A DNA stretch of 64,000 bases from an uncultured Planctomycetota bacterium (GTDB taxonomy: Bacteria; Planctomycetota; Planctomycetia; Pirellulales; Pirellulaceae), in the NCBI GenBank assembly GCA_963700575.1, contig CAVOYC010000005.1:586178-650177 (forward strand), read 5' to 3'. The translations under genes were made by a program, and so were the position numbers. Position 1 is the stretch's first letter. The number at the start of each line of letters is the position of its first letter. Under the pieces are notes generated by a model that was not told the origin of the DNA, ran no database searches, and worked only from the letters and a program-made list of their open reading frames with translations. Below, piece by piece: positions 2,142 to 64,000 of this stretch.

Positions 2142-2858
2142 GTGCGGCAGGCCGTCCGAGAGTTGCGCAACTATCGCAGCTGACGGCGTACCGAGTCTGT
2201 GGAGCGTCATGAGATGGCTCGCTGCGAGTCGCAACGGAGCTGCAGGTGGCACCTGCGAGTGTTGCAGCATCACAGGAAAATGGAACGAGGTCGCTGGCGG
2301 GGGCATTGCCAGCGACCTCGTATTCACGCGCACATCAGCCAGAGTGGGGTTCCACCAGGACGGTGGAACGAAGGTGGGAGTTGCAGTTGGTCCGCCGCAG
2401 TGGTGGCGGACTGATAGAGGTTGGTGCGTTGGCGATCTCCTTTCCAAACCACGTACTGACGACGGTTGCCACTTCGTCGATAGGCGCGAACACGGGATCA
2501 GGACGCACAGGTGCCGGGGTCGCACGGTGATCAACAGACGGGCGCTTTCGGCTACGCCGCATGCAGGACCGACCGCCGACGTCCTTCACTTCGTTCTGCC
2601 AGCTTGTCCGCAGACTTCGAGCCGGGCAAGGAAACAAGCCGCAGCAATGCGTTGCGCGACGCGAGCGGCGAGAGACGGGCACCACCAACAACTATCGGTT
2701 GTCGTGGCTTGCGGATACACGATCCTGATGATCTCGCGCGGAACTACCGACGATCGTGTAAGAAACTGCCTAACCATGACAACCTCAAAGATGAGAGTTG
2801 CCAAATTCGGTGGCCTGGCGATCTCGCGCGACGAGACCCATGGCTTTGCGTCCCGGCC

Positions 2859-3191
2859 TCACGACCGGTTTGCCGTTTCGGTTGGCGTCGACAAAGAAGC
2901 TTGAATCAGTTCAGCAACGAACCATTCATCGTTGCTATTAAATAAATAGGTCGCAAATGGCTGATTGTCAAAAAGATTCAAGATTTTTCCGGTGCGGATG
3001 AGGTCAGCCAGATTCGCCAGCGGGCGTCCGTGCAGCAGAATCGTGAGATACCGGGTGACCGCCTCGCGGACGCCGACGCACGTCAGGCATCGTCCGGGCG
3101 GCGAGAACGCGGACTGGCCGCGCGCCTCCCGGAAGTGCGGCCAGGAGCTGCCGCCAGCCGAACGGCTCTGGTATTCTCTGCGTAAGACCAT
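2859..3191 (-). CDS. hypothetical small ORF in a locally AT-richer patch (only the C-terminal ~60 aa look protein-like)
   Basis: Minus-strand ORF ending ...LTILLHGRPLANLADLIRTGKILNLFDNQPFATYLFNSNDEWFVAELIQASLSTPTETANRS. The underlying DNA at 2870-3010 is clearly less GC-rich than its surroundings. No family recognised. Confidence 0.25.
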   Translation of the reverse strand: MVLRREYQSRSAGGSSWPHFREARGQSAFSPPGRCLTCVGVREAVTRYLTILLHGRPLANLADLIRTGKILNLFDNQPFATYLFNSNDEWFVAELIQASLSTPTETANRS

Positions 3192-8274: not shown

Positions 8275-8829
8275 GGTATGCCTCCCGTAATGACGCGACG
8301 AGGCTGGGCCTCGAACCGATGCAAGCTGCCGTGGGGCTGGAACGAACCGTTCCCGTTCGCCACTCAATACTGGCTCAAAGCACTCGGATCTGGGTCCACT
8401 CGTTGGTTGTTTCCGTACCGGCGATTGGAGCAAACGTTGACTCGAAGTGCAACTGGACTGACTCACTATTGCAGCTCGCACACAGGCCGTCCGGCAGTGA
8501 CTTGTTGTGTGAGCGAGTGGCACGAACGGCCGCCAAGCGACCGGCGGAACATCACTTGCCCCCAGCAGCTGCGGCATTCTGCCGCAGAGCGGCGGCTGGA
8601 AGCCGCCGCCACGGAGAGCAAGTTGCCTGTCAGTCGCCCCATTTCATCGTCGCTGGCCCGTGGGGGCCGAAGCAGAGCTCTTGGATGCCCCCTTTTCAAT
8701 ACAGCCATTTCGGGCGATCTGGGCTTTCCGTGAGGGGCCGCTTGTAGTAAAGGATGCGGGTAGCATCATGCGCTGCGCTGGATCGGCAACAATGTGACAG
8801 CGTTTTTTTGACTGTACGAAAGGATTGTG

Positions 8830-9207
8830 ATGAGGCAATACTTTTTTCTGGGGATCCTGATCTTCGGTGTCCTGGCGGGAATTGTCTATTTCTGCTGGAC
8901 GATCGTCGCAGCGCTTTATCACGATTGGTCGTTGAGTCGACATGTCGACGAAATCAGAGCGGAGAGCGCGGCACAGCGAGCCAGGCGTCTGGAGGAAGCA
9001 GCAAAGCGACTTGACAACGGCTGCGAGCATGCGTTTGGTGAAACTTTTGGAGGGTTCCCACCCCATGCCTGTCACAAATGCGGACTCGAGAAGGAGCGTC
9101 CGCAAGGGGCGTGTGATCACGTGTGGAGAATGGCTCGCGAAGCCGTGCCATGCAGTCGTTGCGAGAAGTGCGGGAAACGATACGTGAGTGTGCGCGCCGA
9201 ATTGTGA
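8830..9207 (+). CDS. small membrane-anchored Cys-rich (zinc-ribbon-like) protein, hypothetical
   Basis: MRQYFFLGILIFGVLAGIVYFCWTIVAALY (one TM helix), followed by a C-terminal half carrying 8 Cys (CEH...CHKCG...CDH...CSRCEKCG). AAGGA RBS. Confidence 0.4.
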   Translation: MRQYFFLGILIFGVLAGIVYFCWTIVAALYHDWSLSRHVDEIRAESAAQRARRLEEAAKRLDNGCEHAFGETFGGFPPHACHKCGLEKERPQGACDHVWRMAREAVPCSRCEKCGKRYVSVRAEL

Positions 9208-12987: not shown

Positions 12988-14256
12988 TTAATTCCGCTTG
13001 ATCAGAACGTCGGTCTCGTATTTCTTCACCTGCTCCAGCCACGCGGCCCCGACGGGAACGCCGCTGCGCAAGCAGTAGTAATCCCACACCGGTCCGACCG
13101 GCATCGTCTTCAGCTCTTCCTGCATGGCCAGTCGCGACGTGAAATCACCGCTCAATTCAAAGGCTCGCATTTTGTCGGATGGCTCGAGCAGTGCCATCAA
13201 CAGGGCCCTGATCATGCACCGTGTACCAATCACCCACGCCGCCACCCGGTTGATGCTGGCATCGAAAAAGTCCAGCCCGAGATGAACTCGCGAGAGACCG
13301 TTGCGGACGATTTCCTGCGCGATCGCCTTCAGCTCGTCGGTCAGTGTGACCACGTGGTCGCTGTCCCAACGCACACCGCGACTGACATGCAACAGAATCT
13401 CGTCCAAGTACAATAAGACGGACGAGATCTTGTCCGAAATCACTTCCGTGGGATGAAAGTGACCAGCATCCAGGCACAGTAACTTCTGCCGACTGATGGC
13501 GTATCCGAGATAGAACTCGTGTGAACCCACGACATAACTCTCGGAACCAATGCCAAACAACTTGGCTTCCACGGCATCCAGGTTGTATTGGGGGTCCAAT
13601 GGCTCGGCGAAGATCGCGTCGAGCGATTCTGCCAATCGCACACGCGGGCCCTGACGATCAACCGGCGTGTCTTTGTAGCCGTCCGGAATCCAGACATTGG
13701 TCACACAAGGCGTCCCGAGTGCTTCACCGATGGCCGCGCCGATCTTCCGGCAGACGATGCCGTGTTCCACCCAGAACCGACGGATCGAGGGATCCTGGTG
13801 TGCGAGAGTGAAGCCGTCCGCCGCTTGCGGGTGGGAGAAAAAGGTGGGGTTGAAGTCGACACCAAGCTGTTTCTCTCGCGCCCATTCGATCCAGCTCTGG
13901 AAGTGCGCCGGCTGCAACTCGTTACGCTCCACGCGCGGCCCGCCCGTCTCGGCATAACTGGCGTGCAGGTTCATCCGATGCCGTCCCGGAATGACCGCCA
14001 GAGCCATCTCGAAATCCGCCCGCAATTCGTCTGGTGTGCGAGCCTTCCCCAGGTAGTTGCCGGTTACCGCCAGACCACCCCCCAGTTCGTCTCCCGTTTG
14101 CTCAAACCCGCCCACATCGTCGCCTTGCCAACAGTGCAGCGAAATCGGAATCGCAGATAGCACCTCCAGGGCTCGGTCAACGTCCACGCCGATGTCCGCA
14201 TACTGCTGCTTTGCCAGCTCATACGCCTGTTCCGTTCGCTCACTCTTGCTGGGCAT
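12988..14256 (-). CDS. rhaA: L-rhamnose isomerase
   Basis: The 422-aa product is collinear with E. coli RhaA along its whole length ([52 protein letters not shown]). Confidence 0.95.
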
Positions 14257-14573
14257 GGTGACTCCAACTCGCTCCCGCGCTACACCCCTCCACGTCGCGG
14301 ATTCGCGGTCCCCCTGGCAACGGGAGATGCGACCGGGTCGTCCTGGGCATTGTCAGTGATCTCAAGAAACCTCTTGGCACGACGCGGAGTGCGCAACTGC
14401 CACTTCGCGATCCCACCGTGTGTTTTACGCAAGTGCGAACGTACCAACTACAGCCGAGAAATCAACTAGCCATTGCCTTGAATTCCCACCCGCTAAGCCA
14501 TTCGGGGGGAAGGTATGGGCAAGTGGAAGAGCAATACGGTCGTTGAACTCGGGGGAAGCGTTGTTCTTAATTG

Positions 14574-14602
14574 GCCGTTCACGGCCTCTGGCCGTGAACG
14601 GC
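14574..14602. promoter_or_regulatory. perfect 13-bp inverted repeat GCCGTTCACGGCC-TCT-GGCCGTGAACGGC
   Basis: Seen directly in the sequence, in the 620-bp spacer between rhaA (start 14256) and the PII gene (stop 14879). It shares the core CGTGAACG with the hairpins upstream of arsR. Confidence 0.4.
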
Positions 14603-14878
14603 TATCCTAACTCGTGATCGTGACAAGGCACTCGACTCGCTGCCAGCCAAGCCTCCGAAACGTCGAGAAAGGCCACTTTGCTTTTCACATCGTAATCGCC
14701 CTTGCGGTGCCTACGGCCGCGCCACCGATTGAGGTAGCATGGAAGCAGCTCAGACTCCTCCTAGCGGGTTTGTCCACGCGCGACGGCGGCCAGGATCAAA
14801 GCCGTGTCGGCAGCTCAACCCATCGAGCCGAGCTGAGTTGTGCCGGAAGTCATTTGGCGGCGCGTTCAGGCAGGGCGT

Positions 14879-15310
<432 letters not shown>

Positions 15311-51704: not shown

Positions 51705-53603
51705 ATGTCAACGACAACCGAAGGACATCCACAACCCAACGTCCAATAAAAGAGACGATTCAACTGGAAGGTGCCACTGTTCGCTTGGCGGGTGATTCCG
51801 GTGACGGCATGCAGTTGCTGGGCACGCAACTGACCAACACGTCGGCGCTTGCTGGGCAATGACGTGGCAACCTTCCCGGATTTTCCGGCCGAGATCCGAG
51901 CTCCGCGTGGTACGCGAGCGGGCGTGAGCGGATTTCAGGTCCAGTTCTCATCGCAAGATATTTTCACCCCGGGTGACACGGCTCGATGCCCTGGTGGCGA
52001 TGAATCCAGCGGCGCTGGTCACGAACGTCGACGACCTTGTGCCGGCGGAATCTTGGTGGTGAACGAGGACGGCTTTGACGACCGCGAGTCTGCGCCTGGC
52101 CAATCTTCAGGCTACAATCCGCTGGAAGACCATTCACTGGACAATTACCGCTTGTTTCGCGTCCCGATGACGACGCTGACACGCAAGGCGGTCGAAGGAT
52201 CTGGGGCTGAGCGTCAAGATGGCCGATCGCTGCCGGAACTTCTTTGCCATGGGGCTGGTCTACTGGCTCTTCGGTCGCGATCCCGAGCGCCACCCTGCGA
52301 TTCATTCGCGACAAGTTCGGCAACAAACCCGACATTGCCCAGGCCAACGAAAAGGCTATGTGGGCCGGTTGGTACTTATGGCGAAACGACCGAGGCCTTT
52401 GCCAGCAGTTATCAGGTGGACGCGGCCAACTGCCTGCCGGCACCTATCGCAACATCATGGGCAACCAGGCGCTGGCCTTGGGACTGCTGGCGGCGGCCGA
52501 GCGGAGTGACAAGGAACTGTTTCTGGGAACCTATCCGATCACGCCGGCCAGCGACATTCTGCACGAACTCAGTAAGTTCAAGAACTTTGGCAGTGCGCAC
52601 GTTTCAGGCGGAAGATGAAATCGCCGCCGTCTGCGCCACCATCGGTGCCGCGTTCGGCGGCGCCATGGCGGTGACCACGACCAGCGGGCCCGGCATCGCG
52701 CTCAAAGGCGAAGCGATGGGCTTGGCGGTGATGCTGGAACTTCCCTTGATCATCGTCAATGTGCAGCGCGGCGGACCGAGCACCGGGTTGCCGACCAAGA
52801 CGGAACAATCCGACTTGTTTCAGGCCATGTTCGGCCGCAACGGCGAATGTCCGCTGCCGGTCATCGCGGCCGCCAGCCCGGCCGATTGTTTCGATGTGGC
52901 GCAGGAAGCGTGGCGGATCGCCGTCGCGATTCATGACGCCGGTCGTGCTCTTGTCCGACGGCTATATCGCCAACGGGTCCGAGCCGTGGCGGATTCCCGA
53001 CGTGGAGGACCTGCCGCGGATCGAGATTCAGCACCCTGAGCCGATCGCCGACGGCGAGCAATTCCTTCCCTACGAACGTGACGAACGGTTGTCACGTCCC
53101 TGGGCGCTGCCCGGAACGCCCGGCTTGATGCATCGTATTGGCGGGCTGGAGAAGCAGAATCGGACCGGCAACGTCAGCTACGATCCCGACAATCACGAGT
53201 ACATGGTCCGGCTGCGGGCTCAAAAAGTTGCCAATGTGGCCGACGACATTCCGTTGCAGCAGGTCGATGGCGCCCGAGAGCGGTGATCTGCTGGTCGTCA
53301 GCTGGGGCGGCACCTATCGGCGCTTGCACGACCGCCGTTCACCGCTGCCAGCGCGGAAGGCTTGTCGGTGGCCCATGCCCATCTGCGATACTTGAATCCG
53401 CTTGCCCAGGAATCTTGGCGAGATCCTGAAGCGTTACCAACGAGTGCTCGTTCCCGAACTCAACCTTGGGTCAGTTGCGCATGCTGCTGGCCGGCACGTA
53501 TCTGGTCGACGCCGGTGGGTTGAACAAGATCAAGGGCAAGCCGTTTGCTGTGGAGGAGGTTGTGGACAAAATCAAGGATCGGTCCTGCGAGAAATCAGAC
53601 TAA
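51705..53603 (+). CDS. korA: 2-oxoglutarate:ferredoxin oxidoreductase alpha subunit (long KorA form); at least 6 frame shifts
   Basis: [14 protein letters not shown] / ...[24 protein letters not shown] / [34 protein letters not shown] / ...[12 protein letters not shown]... / ...[20 protein letters not shown]... / ...[47 protein letters not shown]... / ...[20 protein letters not shown]... The order of the pieces matches actinobacterial KorA. Confidence 0.85.
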
Positions 53604-53649
53604 TCTGAACCTCGACGACTGTTCGAAACACAAAGCCTGACGAAAGAAC

Positions 53650-54655
53650 ATGACGACTGAACTGCCTGTACTGAAGCCGGCTGATTACGCCAGTGACCAA
53701 GACGTGCGATGGTGCCCCGGTTGCGGCGACTATTCGATTCTCGCCCAGATGAAGAAGGTGATGGCGACGCTGCAGATTCCCCGCGAGAAGCTGGTGTTCA
53801 TCTCGGGAATCGGCTGTTCGAGCCGTTTTCCGTACTACATGGAATCGTACGGGATGCACAGCATCCACGGTCGAGCGCCCGGCGTTTGCCACCGGCCTGA
53901 AAGCGGTCCGCCCCGACCTGCAGGTGTGGGTGATCACGGGCGACGGGGACGGTTTGAGTATCGGCGGCAACCACTTCATGCATTGCGTGCGCCGCAATAT
54001 CGACGTGAACATCGTCCTGTTCAATAACCGGATTTACGGTTTGACGAAGGGGCAGTATTCGCCCACTTCGCGGCTTGGGCAGCGGTGACCAAGAGTTCGC
54101 CGATGGGGTCGATCGACAATCCGCTGCATCCCCTGTCGATCGCGATTGGCTGCGAAGGCAACCTTTGTGGCCCGCTCGATCGACACCAACATCAAGCATC
54201 TTGGGCGCAGGTGTTGCAGCGGGCGGCCGAGCACCAGGGCACTGTCGTTCATCGAAGTCTATCAGAACTGCGTGGTCTTCAACGACGGTGCCTTCGATTA
54301 CGCCACCGATCGCGATCGCAAGGCCGATACGACCATCGAACTGGAACATGGCAAACCGCTGATTTTCGGCAAGAATCGCGACAAGGGTATCCGGCTCAAC
54401 GGCATGGAACCGGAAGTGGTTGAGTTGGGTAAGGGGATTACCGAAGACGACCTGCTGTTTCACGACGAACAATCGCCGGAACCGAGCCTGGCTTACCTGC
54501 TCAGCCGCATGCGTTATCCGGAATTCCCGGAACCGATTGGCGTGTTTCGCGCCGTCGATCGTCCCCGGTATGATTTCGAGTTGAATCGGCAGGTGGAAGT
54601 GGCCTGCGAGAAGAAGGGCCGTGGCGAATTTGCAGCAACTAATGAACTCTGGTGA
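53650..54655 (+). CDS. korB: 2-oxoglutarate:ferredoxin oxidoreductase beta subunit; frame shifts near 53900 and 54085
   Basis: [77 protein letters not shown] / ...[49 protein letters not shown]... / ...[40 protein letters not shown]... The TPP-binding GDG motif is present. Confidence 0.85.
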
Positions 54656-54670
54656 AACTTGGACGGTGGA

Positions 54671-55210
54671 ATGATTATTTGCCCTTATTGCGATAGCGAG
54701 AACATCAACGGTGCCGATGCATGCGAGCATTGTGGGCAGACGCTTAACGAACTGCACCTCCCGACACCCGCCTCGCACGTCGAACGCTGCTTGCTCCGCG
54801 ATCGCTTGAGCGAGCTCCCCCCCAGCCAACCGGTGACGACCATTTCTCCCGAGACGACGATCGGCGAGGTTCTTGCAGTTGTTGGCCAGAGCGATCGATC
54901 GGCTGTGTCCTGGTGACGCAAAACGATCGACTGGTCGGTATCTTCAGCGAACGGGATGTGCTGCTCAAGCTGGACTACGCGGGCCGCGGAATTGGCCGAT
55001 CACCCGGTTTCCGAGTTCATGACCCCCGATCCGCAATCGCTCGACGAAGATGCCAAAGTGGCGTTCGCTCTGCATCGCATGAGCGTCGGGCACTATCGGC
55101 ACGTTCCGCTGACTGACGCGGAGTCCCACCCGACCGCGATCATCTCGGTGCGCGACGTGCTCCGCTATTTGACCGACAAGATGGTCGAAGCGGACGTGGA
55201 GTCGGGATGA
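54671..55210 (+). CDS. zinc-ribbon plus CBS-pair protein; frame shifts near 54900 and 54990
   Basis: MIICPYCDSENINGADACEHCGQTL (Cys4 ribbon) ...VTTISPETTIGEVLAVVGQSDRS / ...QNDRLVGIFSERDVLLKL / ...EFMTPDPQSLDEDAKVAFALHRMSVGHYRHVPLTD...ISVRDVLRYL. Confidence 0.55.
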
Positions 55211-56598: not shown

Positions 56599-57087
56599 CG
56601 CGTCTTGAATCTCCCGAGTATCGCGGTGCGTGGGTTAGGGTGAGTGGCAATCCGTGATCCACTGGCCCCCTCACCCCGTCTCCCCTGAAACATCGACGTG
56701 CGGAGGATTCCCCAATGGATGCCTGTATCACGTCCATGTTTCGCGAGGGGCGCAGAGTGCAGCTTCAAAACTCGCCGCCGGTTCTCCCACTGTAATGATT
56801 TCCGGCGGGCGATTCTAGCGGCGTTGTGCGACGAACGCCCGGCACAGGCGGGCGTGGCCAGACCGGTCTCTGGCGGGACGCCAGTGGCGTCGGTTTTGCA
56901 GCACGCTCCACCTGCATTAACGCGGTTGCTACCGCGGCGGTCGCGGTGTTGTAAGCCGATTGTCGCCGATCATGGAATGGCTATGTGCCTGCTGCACTGA
57001 CCACGATCAAGAGGGGGTGAGCGAAGTTCATCGAGCGTGTCTGTTCGTGCACGTGTCGGTCCGAAACGGTGACCATCGTCGCTTCGC

Positions 57088-57949
57088 ATGACATCGAATC
57101 CCGCACAAATTGACACGACGATCGAAATCATCACGCCGGAGAATATTGCGTTCTCATACCGGGTGGCAGGGCCGTTTCGCCGTTTGCCCGCGTACGTCAT
57201 CGATGGGTTGATCCGCGTCGGGATCCTGTGGGTAGCGATGTTCGTGGGGGCCCTTCTTCTCGCTTGCCATCGGTGGTTTGAGCTTGGCGACTGTGGCTGG
57301 TCTTGCTGTTCGTGCTGAGTTGGTTCTATGGTGGCTTGTTCGAGACCTTCTGGAACGGGCAGACGCCCGGGAAGCGGATGATGGGGATTCGTGTTTTGAG
57401 CACCAACGGTCGCCCGATCAATGGTTATCAGGCGATCATGCGCCATTTATTGCGACGGTCGACATGGGGCCCTTGATTTCCCTGGCCGCGTTTGGCGGGC
57501 CGGCCTTTCCCTTGATTCCCACCTACTTGATCGGGCTGATCGTGATGGCCTGCAATCGACGTTTTCAGCGGATCGGCGACCTGGTTTGTGGAACGATGGT
57601 CGTGGTGGAAGAACGGCCGTGGTTGAGTGGCGTGGCTAAGATCGAAGATCCGCGTGCTTTCCAATTGGCATCCTATTTGCCGGCTGACCTGCGGGTCAGT
57701 CGCAGCCTGGCGCGTGCCTTGGCTCATTACGCCGAGCGTCGACGTTACTTCTCGGCCGCCCGTCGGCGTGAAGTGGCCGCGCACGTGGCGGAGCCGCTAT
57801 TGAGGCAGTATCGATTGCCGGGCAACACGAGCTACGATCTGCTGCTGTGCGCCATGTACTATCGGTTGTTCATCGCGGATCGAGGTGCCGACGAGACTCA
57901 CGCGGCGGAGGCCGAGGCGGCATTGGGGGTGCCTATCGGTCGCACGTGA
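57088..57949 (+). CDS. RDD-family membrane protein; frame shifts near 57290 and 57460
   Basis: ...FRRLPAYVIDGLIRVGILWVAMFVGALLL / WFYGGLFETFWNGQTPGKRMMGIRVLSTNGRPINGYQAIMRHLLR / ...LIGLIVMACNRRFQRIGDLVCGTMVVVE. The R-D-D residues and the GKR..G...V motif are present. Confidence 0.7.
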
Positions 57950-58008
57950 GTTTTCCTGTTCCGACGATGCCGCCAGGGACTGAGCAGATTGTCAGCAAGT
58001 AGACTGCC

Positions 58009-58965
58009 ATGAAAGTTGCTGTTTTACTGGAAAAACGCCGCGAGAACTGGCTGGAATTAGATCGTCTCTGCGGCGAGCTGCGGCGGAGGAAAAAGGACGC
58101 GGCCGCGGTTTCTCGCTTTGCCTCACTCTACCGGGCTGCCTGTGCCGACTTGGCCTTGGCCGATGCCTATCAGCTGCCGTCGAGCACGGTGCAATATTTG
58201 CATCAATTGGTCGGTCGCGCTCACAATCAGCTCTACCGCAGTCGGCAGTTTGACTATCGCTCCTGGGGTACCATGCTGCTGGTGGATGTGCCCCAGCGTC
58301 TGTTCCGTGATCGCTGTGTGCAGTTTGCCTTCGTGCTCTTCTGGGCCGTCTTCATCGGCTCGGCGGCCTTGGCTTATTTTCAAGCCGACTGGGCGCCGCA
58401 AGTCTTTCCCGGAAGGGCTGATGGAGCAGTTGGAGGAGAGTTTCAAAGAATCGATTCAGGGGCGGTCGGCGGAAACAAACTACATGATGGTGGCCTTTTA
58501 CATCTACCACAACACCGGCATCGGCTTTCGTTGCTTCGCGCTGGGGATCTTAATCGTGCCGGGGATTCTCGAGACGCTCTGCAATGCGTTGGTGCTGGGA
58601 GCCACGTTTGGTCACATGGGACGTCCGGAGGTGCCCAGGGAGCGAACTTCTTCAATTTCGTCACGGCCCACGGACCGTTCGAGCTGACGGCCATTGCGTT
58701 GTCGGCCGGGGCCGGCCTGCGATTGGGCATGGGCTGGATCCGGACCGGTGGCCTGACACGTACCGCGTCGCTGCGGAAAACCGCGATCGAGGCGGGACCG
58801 TTGATGTGCGTGGCGATGTTGCTCTTTTTTCTGGCCGCCATGATTGAAGGTTTTGTTTCTCCCACCTCTCTCCCCTATCCGGTCAAGGCGGGTGTGGCGG
58901 TTCTGGCGAGCGGGATGTTGATGTTCTACTTGGTGGTGCTCGGATTCCCTCGCAGGAGTGCGTAA
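58009..58965 (+). CDS. DUF95 / stage-II-sporulation-protein-M-like membrane protein (likely two compensating frame shifts near 58400 and 58640)
   Basis: MKVAVLLEKRRENWLELDRLCGELRR...; the alternative frame 58118..58687 contains IYHNTGIGFRCFALGILIVPGILETLCNALVLGATFGHM, which is typical of DUF95; then ...FELTAIALSAGAGLRLGMGWI...LLFFLAAMIEGFVSP... Confidence 0.65.
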   Translation: MKVAVLLEKRRENWLELDRLCGELRRRKKDAAAVSRFASLYRAACADLALADAYQLPSSTVQYLHQLVGRAHNQLYRSRQFDYRSWGTMLLVDVPQRLFRDRCVQFAFVLFWAVFIGSAALAYFQADWAPQVFPGRADGAVGGEFQRIDSGAVGGNKLHDGGLLHLPQHRHRLSLLRAGDLNRAGDSRDALQCVGAGSHVWSHGTSGGAQGANFFNFVTAHGPFELTAIALSAGAGLRLGMGWIRTGGLTRTASLRKTAIEAGPLMCVAMLLFFLAAMIEGFVSPTSLPYPVKAGVAVLASGMLMFYLVVLGFPRRSA

Positions 58966-59866
58966 GTGCAGTTGGACAAGACACTTATTGTGGTTCGCGA
59001 GCGCGGCGTGTTCGACACGCTGGATCTGGCACTGCGTGTGTGGCGGATCTACGCCTGTCCGCTTTGCGTCACGATGTTTCTGGGAGCCGGCCTGTGGGCC
59101 GTGGTGAATTACTTGCTGACCGGCTGGATGCTGAACCCGACCTCGATGCACCGGACTCAGCGGAGCAGATCGGGGGCTACGTTCGTTATACGTGGACCAT
59201 GGTCGTGCTGGTTGTGATGGAATCGCCGTTGGCCTCGGCTCTTTCGACCCTGTATCTGGGACAGGCGTTGTTTGTCGAACGGCCGCATCTCGCCGACACG
59301 CTGGCGCGAATTCGTGGACCATGCTGCCGCAGCTGATCTGGTGCCAGGTGTTCTTGCGCGGCGTTCTTCCGGCGATCTTGTTGGTGATGGCTTTCGACCG
59401 CCAGGCGGCGTTTTCCGGTGCGGAAGTCCTGTTGGTGATGCTGTTTCTCGCCGTTCTCCTCCGCCGTGCCATGTCTCCCTTTTTGAACGAGATCATCCTG
59501 TTGGAGCGAAATCCGATGCGGGCTTCAGGGCGAAATACGCTGACCGTGCGGAATCGCGGTATCATGTTACATGGTCCAGCTGGCGGAAGTCTGATTGTCC
59601 TGGCACTCGTCACGTGGCTGGTCGCGCTGCTGCTGGTCTGTGCCTTGGCCGGAACGTTTCTCTGTTTTCAAGGATTGATGTTTGACAATTGGAAGACGGG
59701 ACTCGGTCTGCTTATCATTGGCTGGCCGCTGGCCCTGTGGCTGACCGCCACGTATTTCACCGTGGTCCGCTTTCTGAGCTATCTTGATGTGCGGATTCGA
59801 CAAGAAGGTTGGGAGGTCGAGTTGCGGATGCGAGCCGAGGCGAGCCGATTGGCGGGATCGTTGTGA
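58966..59866 (+). CDS. polytopic membrane protein, possibly GPDPase_memb-like (C-terminal YLDVRIRQEGWEVEL); frame-disrupted
   Basis: GTG directly follows the stop codon of the DUF95 gene. Hydrophobic segments in three frames. The C-terminal tail is ...TATYFTVVRFLSYLDVRIRQEGWEVELRMRAEA. Its stop overlaps the next start (ATGA). Confidence 0.4.
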
Positions 59867-60633
59867 TGATGCAGTTAATGACAAGTATGGTCATGGTGCT
59901 TTCCTGGGTCTTCACGCTCCACGGCTGGGCCCAGCAAGGACCGTCGTCCGAGGCCGTCGATTGGGGACGCGAATCATTGGAATCGCATCGGCGTTTGCCT
60001 TGGTACGATGCGGATCAAGACAAGCTGCAACGGATCGAAGTTGAGCCGAATGAGGACGACGAAAATCGACATTCTCAGTGGGCCGCCACCGACAGTTCGC
60101 CTGCGAAAAGTAAACGTCGAGACTGGAGTCTCCTGGCGACGATCCTGCAGACTCTGGCCTGGATCGCCCTGGCTCTGTTCTTGGGTTTTCTGATCTGGGT
60201 GCTGGTCTGGGCGGCCAGGCGAGCCGATTTCGCCGGAGCAAGTTCGGTTCACGTGGCAGAAACGGTGGCCGCCGGGCAAAGCCGGATCGAAGATCTGCCT
60301 CTTCCCGTCTCCCGTCAGTATCGGGACTTGTTGTCCGCCGCTGGCGCGTTTTTCGAAGCGGGCGACCTTGGCAAAGCGATCATCTACATGTTTGCACATC
60401 AGCTGGTGGAGCTGGACAAATACCATCTGATCCAGCTTTCCAAGGGAAAGACGAACCGCCAGTACTTGAAGGAGCTGCAGCGGTATCCACGTTTTGTTGA
60501 GCTGGTGCGCCCCACGATGCTGGCCTTTGAGGACGTGTTCTTCGGAAATCACGAGCTTTCGCCACAACGTTTTCAAACGTGCTGGAAAGACCTGGACCGG
60601 TTCCACCAGCAATTAGAGCAGGTCGCACCATGA
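59866..60633 (+). CDS. DUF4129-like membrane-anchored protein
   Basis: MMQLMTSMVMVLSWVFTL...one internal TM (ILQTLAWIALALFLGFLIWVLVW)...C-terminal AHQLVELDKYHLIQLSKGKTNRQYLKELQRYPRF. ATGA start/stop overlap at both ends. Confidence 0.55.
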   Translation: MMQLMTSMVMVLSWVFTLHGWAQQGPSSEAVDWGRESLESHRRLPWYDADQDKLQRIEVEPNEDDENRHSQWAATDSSPAKSKRRDWSLLATILQTLAWIALALFLGFLIWVLVWAARRADFAGASSVHVAETVAAGQSRIEDLPLPVSRQYRDLLSAAGAFFEAGDLGKAIIYMFAHQLVELDKYHLIQLSKGKTNRQYLKELQRYPRFVELVRPTMLAFEDVFFGNHELSPQRFQTCWKDLDRFHQQLEQVAP

Positions 60634-61953
60634 GTCACACGGCTGCCACTAAAACGGTTTCTTGCCCGCGACAGCCTGGCCGCTGGCTGCCGTGCGCGGT
60701 GCCGCATGCGGGCCTGCTGTTTTGCCTCTTCTTGTCGCTGAGTGGCTGTGGCAGCACGGTAGACCTGGAAACCGCGTATGGCCATCGGCGGGGCAGTGAG
60801 GCTCTGAGTGTCAACGGGACACGCGTGTTGGCTGGAATGTTCGAAGAAGCCGGAATGCATGCCGTCACGTTGACCTATCTGTCGTCTCGATTGGACAATT
60901 ATGATGTCCTGGTCTGGGTACCCAATGACTTCGCGCAACCCAGAGCCGATGTGCTGGAGTTCTTGGATCGCTGGTTAACCAGTCAATCGGGCAGAACGCT
61001 TGTCTACGTCGGGCGTGACTACGATGCCGCCTGTGACTATTGGCAACAGATTGCACCGTCAGCACCTGCCGATCAGCGATTTGAGGTGTTACGTCACCTG
61101 GCGAAGGCAAAGTCCACCCATGACAACGCGCGCACTCAAATGCCCAGGGATGCGTGCTGCGAGTGGTTTGTGACGCGTCGTGACCATCCCGGACAACATG
61201 TCCGGCAACTGGATGGTCCTTGGAGTAAGGGCGTAGAGACGTCGCAATCGCATGTTTGGAGCCAGGGGCGGTTGGACATTCCGACGGATAAGGACCTGGC
61301 CACGTTGTGGAAAAACGCGGCTCCACCGGTCTATCTGCGGCCTCACTACCAACCTCTGCTGACCAGCGGTGCGAAGAATCTGGTGTTCGAAGTCTCCAAG
61401 CCCGCCTGGGGGAAAAGCAAAATCCTGGTGGTTTCCAATGGTTCGTTCTCTGCTCAACCTGCCCTTGGTCAATCACCAACATCGCCTGCTCGCCGGAAAA
61501 CTGATCGACAGCTGTGGAGCTGCTGGCAATGTCGCCTTTCTGGAAAGTGACGCGGATGGGCCACGACTGTTGGACACCGGCATGACGAAGAACGATGAAG
61601 AAGCGATCCGCAGGCGGGTTCTGCTCGCCGCACACTGGATGGTGCTCGGAGTGCTCTTCTGCTTCTCCGTGTTTCCCATTTTTGGGCGTCCGAAGTCCCT
61701 CGAGACAGAGACGGTCGCCGATTTTGGCCAGCATATTGATGCCCTGGCCGCACTGCTCGAACGTACGGGAGATACGGCGTACGCCCACCAGCAACTGGAC
61801 CTTTACCACAAAGCGCCTCGCGGCGAGAAGGACTCGCTGCCAGCTGGGCCAATCGCCTTTCGAGGCAGTTCGTTCCGGGAAGATGCAGCCCGGCGCGATA
61901 CCGCCGGGCACGACGCTGTCGCCCCGCGTCCTGCGGAAGCGCGCCCCGGCTGA
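60630..61953 (+). CDS. DUF4350-like exported protein; frame shift near 61440
   Basis: MSHTAATKTVSCP...LLFCLFLSLSGCGS (signal/lipobox)...NYDVLVWVPNDFAQPRADVLEFLDRWLTSQSGRTLVYVGRDYD...SKILVVSNGSF / LLNLPLVNHQHRLLAGKLI... The stop codon overlaps the MoxR start (TGATG). Confidence 0.5.
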
Positions 61954-63327
61954 TGGGAACCGCGGAGACCAACCGTAGTTCTAAGACACAACACAACGAT
62001 TTCGTTTCCTCCAGGGACCATTCAGATATGGATTCGCACTCTCACGATCGTGATACTTCCCGGATCTGTCGGGCCTGCGGGCAGGTCTTTCAATGTGGCG
62101 AGGACAGGGTGAATCAGCCGGTGCAGTGTCCCAGCTGCCATGCCGTACAGTCAGCGTCATCCGAGGAAGCTCACGCCGGCGGCATCCCCCCCGTCGTGGA
62201 AGCGACCGCCAGCCCCAACATGCCGGCGGATCACTCGGCGGGATCCGACCTTCTGTTCCTGGGCGACGACGAGTCCACCAGCGATAGCGTGGCAAGACAT
62301 GGCGTGATCGAGCCGCGCCGGGAAACGGTTGACCGCATGTCGGTGGAGCGAAGTCTCGGGGCGAGTTCTATCGATACACCCGCTCGCAATTTGTTCAACC
62401 GCATGATTGGGGAGATCGGCAAGATCTTTGTGGGCCAGGACGAGCTGGTGCTGGGGTCGCTGGTGGCGCTCTTTTCCAGCGGTCACGTGCTGGTCGAAAG
62501 CGTGCCGGGATTGGGCAAGACGCTGTTTGTCCGGACGTTGGGCCGCGTGTTGGGGTGCCAGTTCAGCCGCATCCAGTTCACGGCCGACCTGATGCCGTCC
62601 GATATCACCGGTGCTCCGATTTTCGACATGAAGACGCAGGAGTTTCGTTTTCGGCCGGGACCTGTCTTCACGCAGATTTCTGCTGGCCGACGAGATCAAT
62701 CGTTCGCCGGCCAAGACCCACGCCGCGCTGCTGGAGATCATGCAGGAGTACCGTGTGACGGTCGACGGCAAGAGCCACACGCTCGCCCGCCCCTTCCTGG
62801 TCATGGCGACGCAGAATCCGATTGAGTCGGAAGGGACGTACAATCTGCCCGAAGCCCAGTTGGATCGCTTCATGTTCAAGCTGCTGGCCGACTACCCGAC
62901 AGAAGAGGAAGAGGCCAAGATTCTGCAGATGCACAGCCGGCAGGTCGACATCAATCAGCGGCTGGAGCAGGAGGTGGAGACGGTCACGTCGCCCGAGGAG
63001 ATCATGGCCATCACGCGCGAGAACGGCGACGTGCGTGTCGACGATCGCCTGCTGGACTACATCAACCAGATCGTGCGGCTCACACGCCAGTGGCCGCAGT
63101 TTCACATGGGCGCTTCACCGCGAGCCGGCATTGCGATCATGCAGGCCATTCGCACGTTGGCGGCTTTTGAAGGCCGCGACTATGCGATCCCCGACGATGT
63201 GGTGCAGGTGGCCTTGCCCGCGCTGCGGCATCGCGTGATTCTGACGGCGGAAGCGGAGGTGGAGGGGTATCGCGTCGATGACTTGTTGCGCGAACTGATT
63301 CGTTCGGTGGAGGTACCTCGACTTTGA
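61953..63327 (+). CDS. MoxR-family AAA+ ATPase with about 120-aa N-terminal extension containing a Cys4 zinc ribbon; frame shift near 62690
   Basis: [27 protein letters not shown], then ...[46 protein letters not shown] (Walker A). In the second frame ...[48 protein letters not shown] (Walker B/sensor)...[30 protein letters not shown]. Confidence 0.9.
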
Positions 63328-64000
63328 TTGCGCCTGCCGTTGAGTTTCGCTGAGCGGTTTGTTCGACTGGGCTCGTCACCGTGCTCAGCCAGCTGTCGCT
63401 CCATCTCGGGTTGCTCGCCGCACTGGCGACGGTACCGCTGTTGTCTGCTGGCCCGCAAGCGAGTCTATCCCCACACCACGCTGTTGGCGCTGATGCTGGT
63501 GCCTTGCGTCCTGTCCCTGCTGCTGTTGGTCGTGCCCGAGTCGATCGGTCATCGTTGCTGCTGATCGATGCGGTCGATCCTTGTTCTGGCGATGGTCGAT
63601 CTGTATTTCCTTGCCCAGGACGCGGGACTTCTCCGCCAGCCGGCGGATGGAACGCGTGGCATCCCTGAACAAGCCACACAACGTCACATTGACAGTGGTT
63701 CATCATCGTAACCGCCGGCGCGAAGATGCAGTTGTGGGTCCGCGATGACCTGCCCGACCGCTTTCGTGGCCACTCCCGCACAAACGGTCGTGCGGATGAG
63801 TGGTCGTTGCCGAGCGCTCGTGGCTTACAAGTTCATCGCCCAACGTCGAGGTGCCTTTTCGCTCGAAGCAGTCCACCTGCGGGTGAGAAGCCGCTGGGGA
63901 TTCTGGAAACGTCAGTTTTCCTGTCCCGCCGACATCGGTCGTGCACGTCTATCCCGATATGGTGCAACTGGCCGAGTACGCGGTGCTGGCACGCACGAAT
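63328..64000 (+). CDS. DUF58-like protein (MoxR partner), frame-disrupted, runs off the window
   Basis: Starts right after the MoxR stop codon. Two N-terminal hydrophobic helices in different frames. The distal frame reads ...VHVYPDMVQLAEYAVLARTN, which matches the conserved DUF58 region. Confidence 0.55.

Follow-up and report, generated by a model that had tools for sequence, protein, structure and literature searches.

A conserved seven-gene MoxR/DUF58 operon of a planctomycete and its proposed inner-membrane complex

The distal end of the window (the whole stretch of 64,000 nucleotides analysed here, from an uncultured planctomycete of the Pirellulaceae) raises two questions: whether a block of genes with repeatedly broken reading frames is a working operon, and what its products might do together.

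Gene order and products

Seven genes (g1 to g7) lie on the + strand at 57088-64000, with overlapping or abutting stop and start codons, and make up a single operon that is conserved and tightly packed; the co-directional order and most of the overlapping junctions described in an earlier note were thereby confirmed. The ATG of g1 is at 57088 and its TAG at 58000-58002 (a stop at 57947 is apparent only, caused by the third frameshift of the gene), with the ATG of g2 6 nt on at 58009. The TAA of g2 (58963-58965) is immediately followed by the GTG of g3 (58966); g3 and g4 meet in TGATG at 59864-59868, where ATGA had been read before, g4 and g5 in ATGA at 60630-60633, and g5 and g6 in TGATG at 61951-61955. 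At the g6/g7 junction the window has TGATTG, with an extra T, against TGATG in relatives. The intergenic region between g1 and a divergent adh_short gene (56614..57087), in which searches for sigma-70-like sites, terminators and Rfam families found nothing, presumably holds the promoter. Transmembrane (TM) prediction yields membrane proteins for six of the seven products, correcting an earlier count of four. Pfam searches were run on stitched, frame-corrected translations of the window; of the families named in the earlier note, RDD, SpoIIM, DUF4129, DUF4350, MoxR and DUF58 (the last via orthologues) were recovered, but not GPDPase_memb for g3.

The g1 product (57088..58002, +; ~300 aa) is an RDD-family membrane protein (PF06271, E 2.6e-20, 73.5 bits at a gathering score of 24.1), predicted to consist of three TM helices and a subsequent cytoplasmic C-terminal domain of ~150 aa. 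Its frame is broken near 57250-57290, 57455-57530 and 57930-57950, and an intact 288-aa orthologue, aligned to the window with tblastn, passes from frame 1 to 3 to 2. g2 (58009..58965, +; 318 aa) encodes a polytopic SpoIIM-like (DUF95) protein (PF01944, E 1.4e-27, 97 bits, gathering score 26.9) with a cytoplasmic three-helix bundle (DUF8413) at its N-terminus; two compensating 1-bp deletions, at ~58405 and ~58636, leave ~77 codons out of frame between them. SpoIIM-like proteins are 63-79% identical across the family, and their TM helices carry invariant polar residues (N168, H221, E225, E280).

The g3 product (58966..59866, +; ~299 aa, 6 TM helices) is marked by an N-terminal MQLDKT..R.R..D..DL and a C-terminal amphipathic RFLxYLDxRIRxEGWEVEL motif, and its frame is broken near 59138 and 59300-59309. 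No Pfam family matched it in the window, in a relative with 61% identity (L001) or in any of 73 homologues, even at E<=5; the former assignment to GPDPase_memb (PF10110) is accordingly not supported. Comparison with a UPF0259/GPDPase_memb-like protein in hhalign gave a probability of 14% (E 0.002). A CTL/PNS1/CysZ-like fold is possible, and, judged by sequence, g3 founds a new 6-TM family for which Pfam has no model.

The only unbroken gene of the block is g4 (59866..60633, +; 255 aa), whose protein combines a signal/anchor segment with a ~75-aa periplasmic loop bearing the motif PWYD, a TM helix and, on the cytoplasmic side, a DUF4129 domain (PF13559, E 1e-5; 25.9 bits, marginally above the gathering score of 24.8, with 29.3 bits for an orthologue). 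It has 414 homologues, and both an NCBI/ENA contig of 919 kb and a Logan assembly encode the identical protein. g5 (60630..61953, +; ~440 aa; single frame break at ~61449) encodes a predicted lipoprotein (lipobox LSGC) whose alpha/beta domain lies in the periplasm, with a TM helix at the C-terminal end and a tail in the cytoplasm; 41 of 48 orthologues keep the Cys that follows the signal h-region. The match to DUF4350 (PF14258, E 2.6e-7) is again marginal at 31.5 bits (gathering score 30.4), and counterparts score from only 21.2 bits (L001) to 83.7 bits (Prevotella). The fold of DUF4350 is GldG-like (PMC5898192).

g6 (61953..63327, +; ~457 aa) encodes a MoxR AAA+ ATPase with the AAA_3 core (E 4.9e-62, 208 bits, cut-off 27) and AAA_lid_2 (77.8 bits), Walker A being PGLGKT and Walker B LLADEINR; an extra T at ~62677 breaks the frame right before Walker B, and the 457-aa orthologue on a contig with ~90% DNA identity (L002) is unbroken. 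As read from the sequence, the N-terminus contains a Cys4 zinc ribbon (62067..62138, +; C39, C42, C59 and C62 in CRAC-x16-CPSC), to which only generic zinc-ribbon profiles matched, all below threshold. The ribbon had been called unusual; it is ordinary within the clade, CxxC-x16-18-CxxC being present in 34 of 61 operon MoxRs, and was absent from the non-planctomycete loci examined.

Directly downstream, at the stop of g6, begins g7 (63328..64000, +), of which the N-terminal ~220 codons are contained in the window before its end truncates the gene. The start codon is disturbed by the extra T described above and the frame is broken several times; a 482-aa orthologue aligns over two frames (tblastn, E 7e-31). 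The orthologues carry PF01882, with the profile region at residues 243-414 of the 482-aa protein, beyond the end of the window, and via these g7 is identified by sequence as a membrane-anchored DUF58 (vWA-like) protein. At the position of the canonical MIDAS motif DxSxS, DUF58 orthologues read DCGRMM (D[CSG]GR[ML]M in 40 of 42), and the VWA_2 match of an orthologue is below cut-off; with DCGRMM in this place, a canonical contact between MoxR and vWA through a metal cannot be taken for granted.

Origin of the frame breaks

The frame disruptions reported in the earlier note are real in the window sequence, with at least 12 single-base breaks in 6.9 kb: three in g1, two each in g2 and g3, one each in g5 and g6, and several in g7. 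Such a density might suggest a decaying pseudogene cluster, an operon inactivated in this organism by genuine mutations. This is highly improbable. Most likely the breaks are errors in the consensus of a long-read metagenome assembly, since the L002 contig has indels at other sites and unbroken SpoIIM, g3 and MoxR genes; in L001, where the synteny upstream is the same, none of the seven genes is broken; another, independent assembly encodes the identical g4 protein and beside it an unbroken g3 of 299 aa; the window and L002 give a dN/dS of 0.125; and the upstream housekeeping POR and TPP genes change frame likewise. Similar splitting is seen in other long-read MAG loci (e.g. L039). The best explanation is not a pseudogene block but a housekeeping operon that is intact and has been inherited vertically; in agreement with the resequencing advised before, the frames need re-polishing.

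Conservation, fusions and related systems

In a synteny survey of 80 planctomycete genomes, the five membrane genes were syntenic in all loci except one (RDD 75/76, g3 75/75, DUF4129 71/71, DUF4350 65/65) and form its invariant part. The same order of genes was found in 65-75 of the tested loci, far above chance, which provides the synteny in relatives that the earlier note had asked for. MoxR was present in 56 of 58 and DUF58 in 39 of 51 loci; since DUF58 is thus absent from the locus in 12/51 cases and MoxR in 2/58, the ATPase module is not obligatorily co-encoded with the membrane genes, and the MoxR/DUF58 pairing noted earlier is real without DUF58 always being adjacent. Cultured hosts of the operon include Rhodopirellula, Rubripirellula and Bremerella, and the same gene set was found in Nocardia (families confirmed by Pfam), Prevotella, Rhizobium and Catenovulum. 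The operon is conserved from planctomycetes to mycobacteria; it is no rarity, and this copy is ordinary. Parts of the neighbourhood have already been noted by Makarova et al. 2015 (PMC5898192).

Natural gene fusions connect several of the membrane subunits. N-terminal extensions were found in 21 of the best 150 SpoIIM representatives, and eight of nine extended proteins scanned with Pfam are RDD::SpoIIM fusions; one of the fusion proteins, located inside the same operon, recurs unchanged in two independent assemblies. SpoIIM fused to a weak DUF4129 match and g3-like::DUF4129 fusions were also seen, the fused ends lying on the cytoplasmic side in the predicted topology. Taken together, the RDD::SpoIIM, SpoIIM::DUF4129 and g3::DUF4129 fusions suggest one physical membrane complex, and the idea of such a complex, put forward in the earlier note, gains independent, if inferential, support from them.

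A close counterpart is annotated in M. chelonae (BB28_RS01875-01900) and M. tuberculosis (Rv3689-Rv3695, moxR2 being Rv3692), where the same families are adjacent and co-regulated (PMC8191103). The assignments are RDD Rv3695, SpoIIM Rv3694c, DUF58 Rv3693, MoxR Rv3692, DUF4350 Rv3691 and a membrane protein, Rv3689. We take Rv3690 to be a membrane protein of this cluster as well, and presume that M. smegmatis may have orthologues of the operon. The mycobacterial cluster differs in its order, with DUF4129/DUF4350-MoxR-DUF58 followed by a divergent RDD/SpoIIM pair, and in a MoxR without zinc ribbon; g3 could not be detected in a 455-aa ORF of Nocardia by hhalign.

MoxR-DUF58(vWA)-TgpA/YebA operons, for which a membrane-proximal ATP-dependent machine has been proposed (PMC3495828), share the MoxR (AAA_3) and DUF58 pair and a membrane partner with cytoplasmic DUF4129, whereas the operon described here has RDD, SpoIIM-like, g3 and DUF4350 proteins and no transglutaminase-like (TGL) or peptidase domain; none of the seven proteins matched a TGL/transglutaminase family in Pfam, which places it outside the MoxR-vWA-TGL group. 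The archaeal arCOG01314 (DUF4350)-MoxR-vWA system likewise has a DUF4350 protein with signal peptide and C-terminal TM helix beside a COG0714 ATPase and vWA, and bacterial SpoIIM homologues adjoin vWA and COG0714 (Makarova et al. 2015, PMC5898192). Its Ig-like/S-layer components are absent here, and RDD, g3 and DUF4129 are outside the archaeal description. Bacillus subtilis SpoIIM, which forms the engulfment complex with SpoIID and SpoIIP, is of the same family (PF01944) and serves as a polytopic scaffold in the membrane; g2 differs in its link to RDD and MoxR and in the DUF8413 bundle added at its N-terminus. Sporulation does not occur in planctomycetes, and SpoIID or SpoIIP genes were found neither in the operon of the window nor in the related loci examined, so that membership in this machinery was rejected. 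RavA-ViaA and Bat (MoxR-DUF58-BatA-E) have in common with the operon the logic of an AAA+ MoxR and a vWA-type adaptor acting on membrane or respiratory complexes. They differ in MoxR subfamily and partners, in BatA/B VWA-TM and TPR proteins that are lacking here, and from the DCGRMM of the DUF58 orthologues at the MIDAS position. The adaptor logic is taken in part from PMC12067865.

Proposed complex and alternative functions

We consider it somewhat probable (about 0.55) that this is a housekeeping operon with technical frame breaks, encoding one inner-membrane complex that is coupled to MoxR/DUF58 and probably has an envelope or transport output. The complex would consist of the RDD, SpoIIM-like and g3 proteins, the DUF4129-anchored protein and the DUF4350 lipoprotein, the latter exposing its GldG-like alpha/beta domain in the periplasm, and would be coupled to the cytoplasmic MoxR ATPase and the membrane-anchored DUF58 adaptor. 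DUF58 may dock a MoxR hexamer to those parts of the membrane subunits that face the cytoplasm, namely the RDD C-domain, the helical bundle DUF8413, DUF4129 and the g3 and g5 tails. The hydrolysis of ATP would then power either the assembly of the complex or a switch in its conformation, with cell-envelope maintenance or inner-membrane transport as the probable output. The analysis documents gene content, synteny, fusions, purifying selection and the topology as predicted; that the proteins physically assemble, that MoxR/DUF58 acts on them and that their function concerns the envelope is what we infer from these. The envelope function is drawn from analogy and one co-immunoprecipitation list, SpoIIM being a scaffold for peptidoglycan hydrolases in Bacillus (PMC5898192), DUF4350 having a GldG-like fold, and Rv3694c and Rv3695 co-purifying with the divisome-associated Rv0954 (PMC8093794). 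The earlier description of the partner families as uncharacterised holds. The literature searched contained no experiment on any member of the operon, and no enzymatic domain or client was identified for these proteins. Complex assembly or quality control of a client by the MoxR system is plausible.

Among the alternatives, the operon might encode a MoxR-regulated transporter or secretion device, with g3 (CTL/CysZ-like permease fold) and/or RDD as conduit, DUF4350 as GldG-like periplasmic accessory in the manner predicted for archaeal arCOG01314, and MoxR/DUF58 gating or assembling it. One RDD member is reportedly a cation/proton antiporter. From DUF4350, MoxR and vWA Makarova et al. predicted a secretion or membrane-remodelling complex (PMC5898192), but Foldseek returned no transporter match, transport by CTL proteins has itself come into doubt (PMC13160678), the operon has no substrate-binding protein, ABC ATPase or secreted cargo, and it lacks the Ig-like/S-layer partners found in archaea, which makes this reading doubtful. 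Unlikely is a membrane-proximal quality-control or degradation machine after the MoxR-vWA-TGL model (PMC3495828), in which DUF58 recruits, MoxR unfolds and a membrane subunit processes the substrate. A candidate subunit would be SpoIIM with its invariant polar residues; structure comparison matched its TM domain to no known protease, and Pfam detects neither a peptidase nor a TGL domain in the seven proteins. DUF4129, on the other hand, is described in Pfam/InterPro as the C-terminal domain of TGL proteins and is counted in favour of this reading.

A ternary MoxR-vWA system for phage defence or conflict is very hard to reconcile with the locus. MoxR-vWA conflict systems exist (PMC7159879), and a weak bpMoxR match was found in Pfam (26.1 bits at a cut-off of 27); against this, PADLOC matched none of the seven proteins, no effector or beta-propeller is present, chromosomal synteny is fixed and the flank conserved, and the genes are under strong purifying selection with high sequence conservation. 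Assignment to the MoxR-vWA-beta-propeller systems was rejected on these grounds.

The housekeeping reading has a bolder form, which we regard as quite unlikely: the five membrane proteins could be an unrecognised envelope machine of Planctomycetota, Actinomycetota, Bacteroidota and Pseudomonadota, in which the SpoIIM-like scaffold, joined to RDD and a CTL/CysZ-fold subunit, would remodel wall or membrane during growth or division when switched on by MoxR/DUF58. Few uncharacterised AAA+ systems of bacteria are as common as MoxR/DUF58 operons, and this seven-family set, itself uncharacterised, is also present in M. tuberculosis and oral Prevotella. The window contributes just one more orthologue; the invariant core, the fusions, the g3 family and the reading of the broken frames as most likely artefactual add up to a concrete subunit map. 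If the envelope machine were real, it could belong to the budding or division apparatus of the FtsZ-less Pirellulales, and Rv3689-Rv3695 would be a divisome-associated complex in M. tuberculosis.

Gene content and reading frames of the operon

Three-frame translation and ORF listing of positions 57000-64000 yielded seven consecutive genes on the + strand. Junctions, Pfam searches and synteny together confirmed the core observation of the earlier note, a seven-gene operon with overlapping reading frames, and its interpretation is supported in part. Gene 1 starts at ATG 57088 (+) and ends with TAG 58000-58002 (+), 6 nt 5' of the ATG of gene 2; its early apparent stop results from a frameshift. 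The gene 2 stop TAA (58963-58965, +) is immediately followed by the GTG start of gene 3 (58966, +), genes 4 and 5 overlap by ATGA (60630-60633, +), and genes 5 and 6 by TGATG (61951-61955, +), all as originally claimed; the overlap of genes 3 and 4 at 59864-59868 (+), given there as ATGA, reads TGATG. The junction of genes 6 and 7 is TGATTG in the window (+) versus TGATG in relatives. At the operon start, neither the Rfam scan nor the promoter/terminator scan gave a match.

With stitched window translations, Pfam assigned RDD to gene 1 (73.5 bits), SpoIIM to gene 2 (97 bits), DUF4129 to gene 4 (25.9 bits, cut-off 24.8), DUF4350 to gene 5 (31.5 bits, cut-off 30.4) and AAA_3 (208 bits) plus AAA_lid_2 to gene 6, the MoxR ATPase, bearing out the five family calls made before. 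The intact orthologues of L001, a relative locus on a 1.8-Mb contig, gave the same assignments and added DUF58 for gene 7, which in the window is identified by orthology only because the profile region lies past the window end. Gene 3 has no Pfam match, nor do 73 homologues at E<=5, which leaves its proposed identity as GPDPase_memb without HMM support; against a GPDPase_memb/UPF0259 protein, its hhalign probability was 14%. An NCBIfam scan returned weak AAA matches and no further names. Membrane segments were predicted by hydropathy scan in six of the seven products, two more than the four proposed earlier, with MoxR alone soluble. In the DUF4350 protein, the signal segment is followed by a lipobox-like xGC, whose Cys is conserved in 41 of 48 orthologues.

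The frame disruptions described in the note are present in the window sequence, with at least 12 frame changes in the 6.9 kb of operon, and most likely represent assembly error, not mutation. We read them as technical for several reasons: the closest contig, L002 (~90% DNA identity), has its indels elsewhere and intact SpoIIM, g3 and MoxR; L001 (61% protein identity) retains all seven genes unbroken, their junctions overlap, and the upstream genes are those of the window; and the exact 255-aa gene 4 product of the window recurs in an assembly made independently from run ERR12037370, behind an intact 299-aa g3. Moreover, dN/dS between the window and L002 was 0.125 over in-frame pieces (0.05 to 0.32 per piece), indicating strong purifying selection. 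Upstream of the operon, the genes for 2-oxoacid:ferredoxin oxidoreductase (POR, TPP_enzyme_C; 51705-54655) switch frame as well, so that the errors are not specific to the operon, and similar fragmentation occurs in other long-read MAG loci, e.g. L039. Compared with L002, the middle of the operon (59318-62300) is nearly identical (pS 0-0.006) with few indels, and the flanks (57088-59310 and 62680-64000) are strongly divergent (pS 0.33-0.54) and hold the indel clusters. Such a mosaic suggests recombination among co-occurring strains or else a consensus that is chimeric and strain-collapsed; the clustering of indels would be consistent with the collapse of such strains into one consensus.

Distribution, synteny and gene fusions

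The SpoIIM-like gene was searched in one genome per species, using a 12-sequence alignment subset as query. More than 587 relatives were found, and the best 80 were all from Planctomycetota. Cultured members among these 80 include Rhodopirellula europaea, Rubripirellula obstinata, Bremerella and Ca. Laterigemmans; the MAGs include some with assignments to Pirellula staleyi, Mariniblastus, Isosphaeraceae and Schlesneria. The flanks of these 80 were searched with the seven L001 proteins; among loci with enough flank, RDD was present in 75/76, g3 in 75/75, DUF4129 in 71/71, DUF4350 in 65/65, MoxR in 56/58 and DUF58 in 39/51. The five membrane genes therefore constitute an invariant core, to which the ATPase/adaptor pair is attached usually, but not always. 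Gene order was constant except at one locus (L059), where MoxR-DUF58 lies divergently upstream, and loci without DUF58 continue with unrelated genes. Of the subunits, SpoIIM is the best conserved, with 63-79% identity in its 120 best matches.

Two loci, L031 and L060 (MAG assigned to Pirellula staleyi), lack MoxR/DUF58 after the five membrane genes. Two contigs labelled 'Candidatus Nealsonbacteria' (L021) and 'Nitrosopumilus sp.' (L038) carry a typical Pirellulales operon with full synteny and SpoIIM identities of 58% and 52%, respectively, and are probably mis-binned.

Beyond planctomycetes, tblastn against annotated replicons recovered the gene set in other phyla. In Catenovulum adriaticum (Gammaproteobacteria) the order is RDD-SpoIIM-hypothetical(515 aa)-DUF4350-MoxR-DUF58, with every junction overlapping; in Rhizobium binae p3 it is DUF4129-DUF4350-MoxR-DUF58-SpoIIM-RDD; in Prevotella sp. 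oral taxon 299, RDD is divergent and lies beside SpoIIM-336aa-204aa-DUF4350-MoxR-DUF58; and in Nocardia farcinica, DUF4129-MoxR-DUF58 is followed by RDD and SpoIIM. An expression table for M. chelonae lists adjacent and co-regulated SpoIIM, RDD, DUF58, MoxR, DUF4350 and membrane-protein genes, with the M. tuberculosis orthologues Rv3694c, Rv3695, Rv3693, Rv3692, Rv3691 and Rv3689, respectively (PMC8191103). Makarova et al. described bacterial SpoIIM homologues adjoining a vWA protein and a COG0714 ATPase, and archaeal DUF4350 with MoxR and vWA (PMC5898192). Our literature search found no experimental study of the gene cluster; a mutation of Rv3690 in a D-cycloserine-resistant mutant was set aside as anecdotal (double mutant, preprint). 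With hhalign, comparisons of g3 and g4 with the Prevotella ORFs at matching positions, of g3 with a 455-aa ORF of Nocardia, and of g4 with the C-terminal half of the Catenovulum 515-aa protein were not significant. A distant operon variant (L089) opens with a UPF0259 membrane protein (2247-3029) that also matches GPDPase_memb and DUF7847 weakly, and has no separate g3; hhalign of this protein with g3 gave 14%.

Searching 1.84 billion representatives with the SpoIIM-like profile gave 531 clusters at E<1e-30. Among the best 150 representatives, 21 extend N-terminally by 166-358 residues, and 8 of the 9 extended proteins scanned were RDD::SpoIIM fusions. One such 573-aa protein recurs without change in an NCBI assembly and an independent run assembly; its locus encodes RDD, RDD::SpoIIM, a g3 homologue (hhalign 99.8% against the g3 profile), DUF4129, DUF4350, MoxR and DUF58. 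Another variant operon is headed by a SpoIIM with a C-terminal extension that weakly matches DUF4129. A g3-like N-terminal half occurs in ~500-aa proteins of Catenovulum (hhalign 87.5%) and of the related locus L090 (73%), the latter with a C-terminal part weakly matching DUF4129 (precomputed match). All fused ends are predicted to be cytoplasmic. By Rosetta-stone reasoning, these fusions suggest contacts among RDD, SpoIIM, g3 and the DUF4129 protein. At locus L087, a separate 168-aa RDD gene (8491-8997) lies just upstream of RDD::SpoIIM, resulting in two RDD modules in one operon. Homology among the cytoplasmic domains (g1, g2, g4, g5, the g3 C-terminal helix and the N-terminal 110 residues of DUF58) was considered and rejected (hhalign <=5.4%).

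Features of MoxR, DUF58, g3 and SpoIIM

The N-terminal Cys4 motif reported for MoxR is real (62067-62138). Ahead of the AAA domain, CxxC-x16-18-CxxC was found in 34 of 61 operon MoxRs, following C..C...L[KR]VP...AG[KR]...CP.C in ten examples, with sub-threshold matches only to generic zinc-ribbon models. Non-planctomycete operon MoxRs (318-328 aa) are without it. The ribbon, limited to part of the planctomycete MoxRs, is thus an accessory of this lineage and does not define the system; one guess is that it tethers MoxR to the membrane or to a partner. A CBS-domain gene downstream of the oxidoreductase (54659-55210) also opens with a zinc-ribbon-like CxxC...CxxC motif (MIICPYCDSENINGADACEHCG), so N-terminal zinc ribbons recur in this genome. 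In the vWA-like domain of the L001 DUF58 protein (13569-15017; residues ~281-292), D-C-G-R-M-M stands where the MIDAS motif DxSxS is expected. This type of motif is present in 40 of 42 planctomycete DUF58 orthologues, with similar motifs in Catenovulum and L090; the MoxR-DUF58 contact may therefore not be canonically metal-mediated.

AF2 gave a confident g3 model (pLDDT 86, pTM 0.84), whose candidate CTL/CysZ-like fold is probable only, because Foldseek did not reproduce the match. A 2026 paper independently linked the CTL and CysZ folds and doubted the transporter role of CTLs (PMC13160678). For the SpoIIM-like protein, the model is very confident (pLDDT 95). Its N-terminal DUF8413 is a generic bundle of three helices, and no PDB relative was found for its membrane domain. 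Even distant members keep N168, H221, E225 and E280 invariant. Profiles of g3, SpoIIM and DUF4129 had no match among PDB sequences.

Possible roles of the system

Going beyond gene content, tight packing, synteny, fusions, purifying selection and predicted topology, we infer that five subunits would form a membrane complex to whose cytoplasmic side DUF58 would anchor a hexamer of MoxR, and that ATP hydrolysis would assemble or switch this complex. An envelope role is suggested by analogy, since Bacillus SpoIIM is a scaffold for peptidoglycan hydrolases and the periplasmic domain of DUF4350 is GldG-like (PMC5898192), and since Rv3694c and Rv3695 are among the proteins co-purifying with the divisome-associated Rv0954 (PMC8093794).

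A role in transport or secretion is a serious alternative to this envelope role, favoured by the putative g3 fold and by Makarova's model. A degradation machine like MoxR-vWA-TgpA (PMC3495828) is a further alternative, for which the operon encodes no recognisable peptidase. We disfavour a defence system, given that a PADLOC scan gave no match, that the operon keeps a fixed chromosomal context, and that selection on it is strong.

The operon represents an ordinary orthologue of a MoxR-linked membrane system that is widespread, already annotated and functionally uncharacterised. What is of general interest is this whole system, including the Rv3689-Rv3695 cluster of M. tuberculosis, rather than the window.
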